The notes under the pieces were generated by a model. The model was not told where the DNA came from, searched no databases, and saw only the letters and a list, made by a program, of their open reading frames with translations. From the IMG/VR virus record IMGVR_UViG_3300045988_123958: DNA of 64,000 nucleotides. The stretch is one strand, 5' to 3'. Source of the stretch: a virus. A program made the position numbers and the translations under genes. Every line of letters begins with the position of its first letter. The stretch's first letter is position 1. Shown piece by piece: positions 59,908 to 61,162 of the stretch.

Positions 59908-60037
59908 TCTTTTAACCTCCTTTTAAAGATGTTAAAAGATAATCATTCGAGAACCCATTGGACTCACTCCCTATATTTTATTAATGGTGCGGGCGACGAG
60001 AATCGAACTCGTACGAGGGTTTACCTCATGGGATTTT

Positions 60038-60931
60038 CTTACTACTCTATGTCACCATAGCCACATTTCTGTGTTGTAGTCTGGAATACGTCTTTACCAT
60101 ATCTTATTCAGACTTAGGTAGCTGGTGTATTTTATAATAATTTTAAGATTTATTAAAGTCAATTTTATATCTCATGGAAGGAATAATATATTGCTCAATC
60201 ATTGGGAAAAATTTCATTGCTTCTTTTTTACCCATTCTCAAACGATACTTACCTTTACTTTTATTAAGTTTCCATGTAATATTAAATTGACTTTGAAAAA
60301 AATCAATAATAACTTGATTTTCTTCTGCGGTAAGATAAGTATTTAAAGTAATTTCAGCACCTCTTGGTTTACCGTCAATTTTTTTAATTGACATAGAACC
60401 ATCATCCATATACCACCAAGCAATCCCTTCTAAAGTTAGCTGTTCTAAAGCTTCTTTAAGGATTACCTTTTTACCATTAGGATAAAATAAATTAACTAAA
60501 TATTTCGTTAATTCGGTTGTTTCAGTGGTAAATTGAAATACTGAAGTATTATATTGAGGATAATCATACTTATATGTTTGAAAAGTCTGATTAAAAATTT
60601 TCTCAAATCGAGCTTTTTTATATTCAAACCAATCTTTTTGTTTAACAGATTGCCCACAATATAATCTTTTCTCTTTTCTTCCACAATCTCCACATAAAGT
60701 GCCTATTAAAACACCCATGTCTTCTTTGGAGCATAGACATTTGTCCATTTTTATTCCTCCTAAAATTATTATTACTCTCTACACATTTATTATAACAGAA
60801 GATATTATAAACTTAGCACGGCGTTCTGTATTCGCCTTCGCCGTTTTAGCCAGCTTCTACTCTAAGAGTTTCCTCTTAGGCACTCTCTACTATTAAATAG
60901 TAGTATCCATTTTGACACGGATAGAATACAT
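60038..60931 (-). mobile_element. group I intron in tRNA-Leu(UAA) between U34 and A35, carrying a LAGLIDADG endonuclease ORF
   Basis: Same site as the cyanobacterial/plastid trnL(UAA) intron; 5' exon ends in U, intron ends ...GTAGTAAG; internal GGCTAAAACGG P3/P4-like element. Confidence 0.65.
60143..60748 (-). CDS. LAGLIDADG homing endonuclease (two motifs), intron-encoded
   Basis: GVLIGTLCGDCG and IAWWYMDDGS LAGLIDADG-type motifs; AGGAGGAATAAAA SD. Confidence 0.7.
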   Translation of the reverse strand: MDKCLCSKEDMGVLIGTLCGDCGRKEKRLYCGQSVKQKDWFEYKKARFEKIFNQTFQTYKYDYPQYNTSVFQFTTETTELTKYLVNLFYPNGKKVILKEALEQLTLEGIAWWYMDDGSMSIKKIDGKPRGAEITLNTYLTAEENQVIIDFFQSQFNITWKLNKSKGKYRLRMGKKEAMKFFPMIEQYIIPSMRYKIDFNKS

Positions 60932-61162
60932 CAAAGTCCCAGGCGTCTGCCAGTGTTCCGCCACGCCCGCAGATATCAGCTTTAATGTCAGCCAACAACT
61001 TTCTCTTCAAGTTCCAGCCAGAATTACTGACGCTCAGTCCGTCTATTTTTTCTCTCGCGGGCTTTAGATAATATTTACAAGACCTCAAATAACATCCTTG
61101 AAGTTTGGTAAAGATTTTATTCTTATATTTGCTGATAAGGTCTTTCTTCATTTTATATAAAT

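Follow-up and report, generated by a model that had tools for sequence, protein, structure and literature searches.

How a phage tRNA gene can be read when its two halves lie far apart is the question raised by the window analyzed here, a 64,000-nucleotide (nt) stretch of viral DNA (IMG/VR record IMGVR_UViG_3300045988_123958), in which two tRNA halves are separated within a tRNA cluster on the minus strand. A first-pass annotation, made from the letters alone, had proposed a tRNA-Leu(UAA) gene split between U34 and A35 by a group I intron with an endonuclease gene. Our analysis led to a similar reading, namely that this phage tRNA-Leu(UAA) is interrupted at U34/A35 by a mobile group I intron carrying an I-SceI-type LAGLIDADG gene, and we assign it a probability of about 0.88; splicing and homing are the parts of it that we infer.

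The 3΄ exon (AAAATCCCA...CGCCCGCACCA, full sequence AAAATCCCATGAGGTAAACCCTCGTACGAGTTCGATTCTCGTCGCCCGCACCA; 53 nt with CCA, minus strand) lies at 60037–59985, exactly where it had been placed by the first-pass annotation, and the exact 3΄ half is present on five IMG/VR viral contigs. For the 5΄ exon (GCGGGCG...GGGACTT, full sequence GCGGGCGTGGCGGAACACTGGCAGACGCCTGGGACTT, minus strand), whose last base is the splice-site U, the annotated sequence was correct but the coordinates were 2 nt off (60932–60968, compared with the actual 60970–60934). Similarly, the gap between the halves does exist, but the insert measures 896 nt (60933–60038, minus strand) rather than the 894 nt given earlier. The joined exons form the anticodon loop CUUAAAA of a tRNA-Leu(UAA), with the insertion site at U34/A35, and the predicted junction (here marked by a slash) reads GGGACTT/AAAATCCC as DNA and GGGACUU/AAAAUCCC as RNA. 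The split gene was missed by ARAGORN at default settings and by the Rfam tRNA model, while six other tRNAs of the cluster were detected. With long introns allowed, ARAGORN reported tRNA-Leu(taa) i(38,896), that is, an 896-nt intron after position 37; anticodon calls in this intron mode are unreliable by 1–2 nt.

We then compared the locus with related IMG/VR contigs, and found that three of them (L001, L002 and L004) contain an unbroken tRNA-Leu(UAA) gene of 88 nt at the corresponding position of the same cluster, the shared order being Cys-Lys-Gly-Leu-Ser-Ser-Thr. These intronless alleles read ...GGGACTT/AAAATCCCA... (junction CTT/AAAA; longer stretch ...CCTGGGACTTAAAATCCCA...) and are equal to exon 1 plus exon 2 of the window, with two extra D-loop bases in the window as the sole difference; in this 2-nt insertion (window-specific D loop, AACACUGG) the window differs from all siblings. 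Only one excision (TGATG...GTAGTAAG) reproduces the intronless sequence, and the 400 nt upstream of the gene show 98–99% identity between the window and the intronless contigs. Because of this intronless junction and the near-identical flanks, the two halves represent one gene split by an insertion, and not remnants of a rearrangement, which was the case that the first-pass annotation had set against itself. Its proposal of a tRNA-Leu(UAA) split at U34/A35 was thus borne out by the intronless alleles and by ARAGORN with introns. An explanation of the latter kind, in which the halves are leftovers of a rearrangement or some unrelated mobile element, for instance a free-standing endonuclease gene, interrupted the gene, without any splicing, could appeal to the free-standing HNH and PD-(D/E)XK genes that are common around phage tRNA clusters. 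However, the ends of the insert coincide exactly with the intronless junction, the open reading frame (ORF) has a conserved, covarying group I core to either side of it, and many genomes have the same core at the same site with no ORF at all. This explanation is already contradicted, and we give it next to no chance. Separately, a 91-amino-acid ORF (60876–61151, minus strand) reads through the 5΄ exon of the tRNA and on into the beginning of the intron. The DNA of its upstream portion (..NLKRKLLADIKADI) is conserved in siblings, so that a short gene may end at, or overlap, the start of the tRNA.

The nature of the insert was examined by covariation in an alignment of 47 non-identical copies, in which ORFs were replaced by N spacers and the canonical group I pairings were written onto the alignment. 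Standard pairs were observed in 90% of the alignment cells, compared with 32–42% when the 3΄ partners were slid by 1–3 columns. Changes on both sides occurred in 38/64 pairs, and 0/500 shuffles reached the observed values on any measure. Pairing was 96.7% in P2, 100% in P3, 99.3% in P4, 97.9% in the P7 pseudoknot, 99–100% in P8 and 99.6% in P9 (range over P9, P9a and P9b, 93–100%), and all core helices pair in the row of the window. From the alignment alone, RNAalifold recovered P2, P3, P4, P8 and P9, pseudoknots being beyond the reach of this method. The last exon base U, the last intron base G and the GAAA loop of P2 (L2) were invariant (47/47), and the P8 receptor was conserved as CCUAAG in 37/47 and UAUGG in 46/47 copies. 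As stated in the first-pass annotation, the 5΄ exon of the window ends in U and its intron in G (GTAGTAAG). The two hairpins in the P1 loop, which we named P1a and P1b, were only 42–50% paired; this region is indel-rich and misaligned, so that covariation is uninformative there. P5, a small hairpin in canonical relatives, is not evident in the window. The anticodon-loop location and the compact core without a P5abc extension are IC3-type traits. We rejected archaeal-type bulge-helix-bulge splicing as well as a group II intron, since the ORF is flanked on either side by the group I core. The positions of these elements are given in Table 1.

Table 1. Features of the split tRNA-Leu(UAA) gene, its intron and the intron-borne gene, in window coordinates
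Feature	Position	Strand	Remarks
tRNA-Leu(UAA) 5΄ exon, 37 nt	60934–60970	(–)	Acceptor 5΄ strand GCGGGCG, D arm, anticodon-stem 5΄ strand, loop C32 U33 U34
Group I intron, 896 nt	60038–60933	(–)	Begins UGAUG, ends GUAGUAAG; terminal omega-G at 60038
Two extra hairpins (P1a, P1b) in P1 loop	60887–60923	(–)	Typical of the subfamily of the window, absent in short canonical members
Internal guide sequence GAGU	60882–60885	(–)	P1 with exon (A)CUU; U60934.G60885 is the splice-site wobble; U.G in 45/47
P2 hairpin CUAAGAG-GAAA-CUCUUAG, invariant GAAA tetraloop	60862–60879	(–)	7/7 pairs compensatory; GAAA 47/47
P3 5΄ strand GCUGG	60850–60854	(–)	5/5 pairs compensatory, 100% paired; RNAalifold
P4 (ACGGCG/CGCCGU) around reduced P5 region	60818–60844	(–)	Covariation and RNAalifold
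P6 hairpin	60790–60810	(–)	Same loop houses HNH gene in relatives
J6/7 (UAAAUGUGUAGA) and P7 5΄ strand GAGUA	60773–60789	(–)	P7 97.9% paired, 3/5 pairs compensatory, first G-C invariant
ORF cassette, 643 nt, at P7/J7-3 boundary	60130–60772	(–)	11-bp closing stem: 60772–60762 with 60144–60134
LAGLIDADG homing-endonuclease gene, 201 amino acids and stop	60143–60748	(–)	Motifs LIGTLCGD and AWWYMDDG
P3 3΄ strand CCAGC	60121–60125	(–)	Covariation and RNAalifold
P8 with 11-nt tetraloop-receptor motif CCUAAG...UAUGG	60096–60119	(–)	Covariation, RNAalifold, conservation
J8/7 (AAAGACG) and P7 3΄ strand UAUUC	60084–60095	(–)	Covariation
P9 three-way element: P9 ACUAC/GUAGU, P9a with GAAA loop, P9b	60041–60080	(–)	Covariation, RNAalifold, covariance model
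tRNA-Leu(UAA) 3΄ exon, 53 nt	59985–60037	(–)	A35 A36 A37 A38, anticodon-stem 3΄ strand, long variable arm, T arm, acceptor 3΄ strand, A73, CCA

A scan with the Rfam model RF00028 (gathering cutoff, 50 bits), which the first-pass annotation had suggested as a check, failed on the window copy and succeeded on ORF-less relatives only. At the gathering score, no match was obtained on the first 15 related loci. The shortest ORF-less relatives, L087, L025 and L067, scored 65.5, 58.3 and 54.3 bits, all over model positions 1–253 of 253, and the 237-nt ORF-less L007, a closer relative of the window, was aligned over its full length below the cutoff (28.6 bits, E = 1.4e-5). In those three relatives the P1 loop and the P5 hairpin are both small, whereas the subfamily of the window has two extra P1-loop hairpins and a reduced P5. 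In one alignment, the core of the window was 60–71% identical to L087, L025 and L067 (71% to L087 and L067), and it was 95% identical to the natural ORF-less copy L009. The window copy is missed because the model must bridge a 643-nt insertion in the P3-enclosed region as well as the extra P1-loop hairpins. Weak Rfam matches on the window at E ≤ 10 (SpF14, RsaA, microRNA and long non-coding RNA models) were dismissed as chance. We also built a covariance model of the 3΄ half of the intron from 17 relatives, leaving out the window. This model gave one match in all 64 kb, at 60134–60038 on the minus strand (93.4 bits, E = 2.6e-19), which ends exactly on the omega-G, and a motif search found no second intron copy in the 64-kb window. 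The covariation, the RF00028 matches on relatives and the window-blind model together support the group I nature that had been proposed.

The ORF within the intron is preceded by the Shine–Dalgarno sequence AGGAGG (60761–60756), 7 nt upstream of the ATG, in agreement with the strong ribosome-binding signal noted earlier. It matched Pfam LAGLIDADG_2 (PF03161) at 1.7e-30 (106.7 bits, compared with a cutoff of 25), ORF residues 12–180 covering profile positions 2–168 of 168, and aligned over its full length with I-SceI-family structures (E about 1e-10). The aspartates of both motifs were aligned (IGTLCGD with I-SceI IGLILGD, and AWWYMDDG with AYWFMDDG). The earlier call of a two-motif LAGLIDADG ORF is therefore upheld by the Pfam and PDB matches, and the enzyme is probably a monomeric two-motif endonuclease of the I-SceI type. 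A comparison with the ORF-less L009 (...GAGAGTA/TACAC..., the slash marking the insertion point) placed the ORF cassette between the P7 5΄ strand and J7/3, and its 11-bp closing stem, AUAAUAAUUUU/AAAAUUAUUAU, forms in the minimum free energy fold of the whole intron. Close protein homologues comprised 29 intact clusters with 83–92% identity. L133–L136 carry a homologous LAGLIDADG gene at the same position in 866–870-nt introns of tRNA-Leu(UAA) genes with different exon sequences; in L133/L136 the closing stem is AUAUUAUUUUU/AAAAAUAAUAU, its pairing being kept through compensatory changes. Since the ORFs of the window and L133/L136 are 84–85% identical, compared with 62–66% for the 5΄ ribozyme, these results suggest that the LAGLIDADG cassette was exchanged between diverged ribozyme backbones.

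Two further arrangements involving LAGLIDADG genes were observed. In L138 (2741–3678; also in L139), a LAGLIDADG gene (P0032) with 44% identity has a GTGTAGAG motif on one side and the family 3΄ end TAGTCCAGACCACAA...GTGGTAAG on the other, the latter followed by a tRNA 3΄ half, and a seemingly complete tRNA with a long variable arm (GGGTTGG...CTTTTAA...CCAGCCCACCA) stands in place of P1–P6 between the matching tRNA 5΄ half and GTGTAGAG. Another LAGLIDADG-bearing copy, on a 57.6-kb contig (NCBI GCA_016648615.1), has three PD-(D/E)XK_5 genes and an HNH_3/NUMOD4 gene within 6 kb according to the gene table; genes resembling homing endonucleases are densely clustered in this phage tRNA region.

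To describe the distribution of the intron, family members were recruited first with an exact 28-mer of P2, which gave 15 loci, and with a degenerate J8/7-P7΄-P9 pattern, which matched viral contigs in 91 stretches and bacterial genome assemblies in 35. The sample is motif-selected, and the exons were located by a search for anticodon-stem complementarity. The siblings L003 and L005 contain 738- and 764-nt inserts at the same site, sharing the sequence of the window on both sides of a different ORF. L005, L006 and L014 carry an HNH-bearing form, and their upstream flanks are 98–99% identical to those of the window. Consequently, one genomic background occurs in three states, namely intronless, with an HNH-bearing intron and with a LAGLIDADG-bearing intron. 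As judged from these alleles, this is the classic signature of homing introns with independently gained and lost endonuclease genes; actual cleavage and homing would be the processes behind it. Among 50 extracted family introns of at least 345 nt, the other endonuclease genes recognizable by tblastn were all of HNH type, in three subtypes, and the HNH gene was found in the P6 loop of the copies examined (L003, L005, L016 and others). Remnants were observed in L010 and L012, and ORF-less forms also exist (L007, L009 and the bacterial copies), the ORF-less members measuring 198–256 nt. By sequence comparison, the endonuclease gene is an independent passenger, as the same ribozyme occurs with different endonuclease genes or none, and these genes sit in different peripheral loops.

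In the mechanism that we propose, the tRNA cluster is transcribed from the minus strand, and the intron folds into a compact tRNA-type group I core consisting of P1 (exon (A)CUU with the guide GAG(U)), P2, the P3/P7 pseudoknot, P4, P6, P8 and P9. A free guanosine would attack after U34, and the exon 3΄-OH would then attack after the terminal G (60038), yielding a 90-nt tRNA-Leu with the loop CUUAAAA. The anticodon stem probably helps to keep the exons together, as it reportedly helps to hold the exons of the Anabaena pre-tRNA intron. The endonuclease, to judge only from its context, would act on co-infecting relatives whose tRNA-Leu(UAA) genes lack the intron, cutting these genes at the insertion site or close to it, and repair of the cut would copy the intron into them (homing).

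Several points weigh against this reading. Splicing and DNA cleavage are predictions, the endonuclease target is predicted from gene context only, and the host is assigned by where related introns occur. RF00028 gave no match on the window copy, neither at the gathering score nor at E ≤ 10. P1 has only 3–4 bp and does not vary, which places it beyond the reach of covariation, and RNAalifold gives up the A-U pair of P1 in favor of an extended P2. P5 is smaller than in canonical relatives, a G.U pair lies within P7 of the window, and the ORF cassette abuts a P7 strand, so that catalysis could be impaired or protein-dependent. With regard to P1, the four-pair form (ACUU/GAGU) is weakened, since RNAalifold places the U of GAGU in the extended P2, and CUU/GAG is the safer description.

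Some LAGLIDADG proteins act as maturases, and it is conceivable that this is a real group I element that no longer self-splices alone and folds only with help, either from the encoded LAGLIDADG protein acting as maturase or from a factor of the host or the phage. This would fit the reduction of P5 relative to L087-type relatives, the G.U pair in P7 together with a cassette at the P7/J7-3 boundary, and the low RF00028 score in the subfamily of the window (28.6 bits for L007). However, Ruminococcus albus 8 and R. flavefaciens FD-1 have members of the reduced-P5 subfamily without an ORF in their tRNA-Leu(UAA). Because these copies contain no intron-internal maturase gene, their core should be self-sufficient or reliant on general factors. 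All core helices are, moreover, intact in the window. We consider such dependence rather unlikely. A more radical possibility is a dead gene, its intron decayed and no longer spliced, in a phage that depends on the tRNA-Leu of its host. The lack of an RF00028 match on the window, the status of the spliced product as a prediction and the 2-nt D-loop insertion relative to all siblings could be explained in this manner. On the other hand, the core shares 95% identity with the ORF-less L009, and in the window none of the tested helices fails to pair; the splice-site U.G and the omega-G have been retained; the ORF is unbroken and has both catalytic motifs; the predicted spliced product scores as tRNA-Leu in ARAGORN; and several lineages have kept the LAGLIDADG form, with compensatory changes in the stem. 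A dead gene is accordingly improbable in our view, and a mobile intron that is spliced from the tRNA-Leu(UAA) remains the preferred reading.

The phage setting asserted in the first-pass annotation was supported by the PHROG context, as genes of the window matched T4-type topoisomerase II subunits, DNA and RNA ligases, PhoH, a DNA polymerase fragment and an HNH endonuclease. Its relatives are 65–197-kb IMG/VR viral contigs. When the locus and 24 kb of the window were compared with deposited phage genomes by BLAST, only tRNA-Thr was matched, and thus no cultured relative is available. The bacterial matches of the family came almost entirely from rumen or hindgut Clostridia assemblies. In the isolates R. 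albus 8 (L102) and R. flavefaciens FD-1 (L110), 222–242-nt ORF-less copies were found at CUU/AAAA of tRNA-Leu(UAA). No other tRNA was found near the bacterial tRNA-Leu copies in the loci scanned, which suggests that these copies are chromosomal genes rather than parts of phage tRNA arrays. The family is likely to be common to Oscillospirales-type hosts and their large phages.

We compared the intron with known systems. The first-pass annotation had likened it to the cyanobacterial and plastid tRNA-Leu(UAA) intron, for which 34/35 is given as the tRNA-Leu insertion site (PMC13011429). The classical intron of Nostoc/Anabaena PCC 7120 shares the gene, the 34/35 site and the intron class, and in both systems the 5΄ exon ends in CUU, which pairs with a GAG guide, while the exons can also pair as an anticodon stem. 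In contrast, the intron of the window lies in a phage rather than in a cell or plastid, carries a homing-endonuclease gene, and has two extra P1-loop hairpins and a reduced P5. The likeness is shown for insertion site and intron class only, and a common descent of the ribozymes would be conjecture. The Azoarcus tRNA-Ile(CAU) intron, a compact IC3 ribozyme, has a similarly small tRNA-borne core. The invariant GAAA L2 and the CCUAAG/UAUGG receptor in P8 of our family may correspond to the L2-P8 docking arrangement of Azoarcus. The window differs in the tRNA and the insertion position, in its reduced P5 (the L9 docking site in Azoarcus) and in the ORF-bearing stem after P7; the Azoarcus crystal structures are cited in PMC3984707.

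Endonuclease genes in bacterial tRNA introns were recently surveyed (PMC13011429, 2026): among 333 tRNA group I introns from 4,934 complete bacterial genomes, 12 had endonuclease genes, with HNH in Bacteroidota tRNA-Leu(UAA) and LAGLIDADG only in cyanobacterial tRNA-Arg(CCU), and none in tRNA-Leu introns. The Bacteroidota introns (Figure 6 legend of that paper) are likewise endonuclease-bearing tRNA-Leu(UAA) introns, whereas the gene of the window is LAGLIDADG rather than HNH, stands after P7 rather than in the P6 loop, and belongs to a phage genome. A 784-nt HNH-bearing member of our family on a contig binned as Bacteroides (L117) is possibly of the same kind as these. The Cyanobacteriota tRNA-Arg(CCU) introns share a PF03161 endonuclease in a bacterial-type tRNA group I intron, but differ in the tRNA and in the site, which is 36/37 there. 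Phage introns in protein-coding genes (T4 td, nrdB and nrdD; SPO1/Bastille DNA polymerase; Twort) are also phage-borne, endonuclease-carrying and presumably homing, and show presence/absence polymorphism between close relatives, but they interrupt mRNAs and not a tRNA. I-SceI, the endonuclease of the yeast mitochondrial large-subunit rRNA intron (PDB 1R7M, 3OOR), aligns at full length with both motifs and their aspartates, whereas the enzyme of the window is shorter (201 compared with 235 amino acids), distant in sequence, encoded in a different intron and presumably directed at a different target, a tRNA gene.

Thus, the chemistry and the insertion site are familiar, and the phage tRNA gene, the LAGLIDADG gene at P7/J7-3 of a tRNA-Leu intron, the altered periphery and the large polymorphic family are new. 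A 2014 review saw a puzzle in the fact that the phage introns observed until then all lay in protein-coding genes although phages have many tRNA genes (PMC3984707). This locus and its relatives, with 91 viral and 35 bacterial stretches matching one short motif, show that phage tRNA genes do harbor group I introns. In the full-text literature, whose coverage is incomplete so that this is absence of evidence only, we found no published phage tRNA group I intron and no report of this intron family in Ruminococcus. The family, a big one that is apparently undescribed, consists of mobile introns common to gut Clostridia and their phages. A wider and more tentative idea, which we think could well be wrong, is that tRNA group I introns are common and actively mobile in phages, in tRNA-Leu(UAA), tRNA-Ile(UAU), tRNA-Arg(UCU) and the amber-suppressor tRNA(CUA) of stop-codon-recoded phages. 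They might be exchanged with the tRNA-Leu of Clostridia hosts, with LAGLIDADG and HNH enzymes serving as weapons between near-identical co-infecting phages, and phages might be the vector so far missing from the long debate on how the bacterial tRNA-Leu intron spreads horizontally. The ORF-less copies in Ruminococcus tRNA-Leu(UAA) offer a concrete route for host–phage intron exchange and bear on this question of horizontal spread. Near-identical phages in three intron states are a natural experiment, in which homing, endonuclease replacement and phage–phage interference are directly testable. As default tRNA finders and Rfam miss split genes, phage tRNA repertoires, possibly including recoding suppressor tRNAs, are under-counted.

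The family ribozyme was also observed in phage tRNAs other than tRNA-Leu, on viral contigs from the degenerate-pattern scan. The spliced loop of L053 and L028 would be CUCUAAA, with the anticodon CUA (amber-suppressor type); L040, L077 and L021 would yield tRNA-Ile(UAU), L021 after correction of the ARAGORN boundary; L020, L039 and L050 would yield tRNA-Arg(UCU); and L074 received a tRNA-Tyr call. The ARAGORN calls 'Stop(tta)' for L003 and L021 were wrong, being Leu(UAA) and, on inspection, Ile(UAU). Introns in the suppressor tRNAs of recoded phages could gate the code switch. Among the intron-borne HNH genes, those of L005, L008, L013, L031, L060, L052 and L117 contain in-frame TAG only, and those of L042 and L059 TGA only, with full-length alignment and 64–96% identity to intact homologues. 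From these alignments, the in-frame stops look like phage stop-codon recoding rather than gene decay; recoding has been proposed for an intron endonuclease by Borges et al. (bioRxiv 10.1101/2021.08.26.457843). In L133–L135, a tRNA(CUA) adjoins the split tRNA-Leu (positions about 3847–3923).

Several other RNAs and genes were noted in the tRNA regions. A RAGATH-33 RNA (RF03102, 127–135 bits, above the cutoff), absent from the window, was detected in L003 (4364–4492), L005 (6231–6359), L006 (1933–2061) and L015 (9998–10110). It lies about 13 nt (L003) and 66 nt (L005) downstream of the split tRNA-Leu, and within about 70 nt of it in L006 and L015. ROOL RNAs (RF03087, 290–341 bits) occur inside the tRNA arrays of the related phage contigs L009 (7507–8092), L025 (3148–3722) and L035 (3240–3847). 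Rfam tRNA matches that cover the full model but span 127–184 nt were found in L003 (3148–3287), L006 (717–856), L013 (6835–7018), L087 (130–260) and L025 (4521–4647); the insertions in these genes (55–110 nt) are too short for the ribozyme family of the window. A 425-amino-acid ORF of the window (1568–2845, minus strand) matched only positions 95–443 of the 1190-position DNA polymerase profile phrog_405, and this polymerase gene may be split, truncated by the layout of the window, or interrupted. Finally, a few kb from the tRNA cluster, genes for an 'RNA-binding protein' family (phrog_850; 53696–55261, minus strand, 2.9e-134) and an RNA ligase (phrog_968; 45003–46382, minus strand, 9.4e-63) were found, which may form a tRNA repair module.

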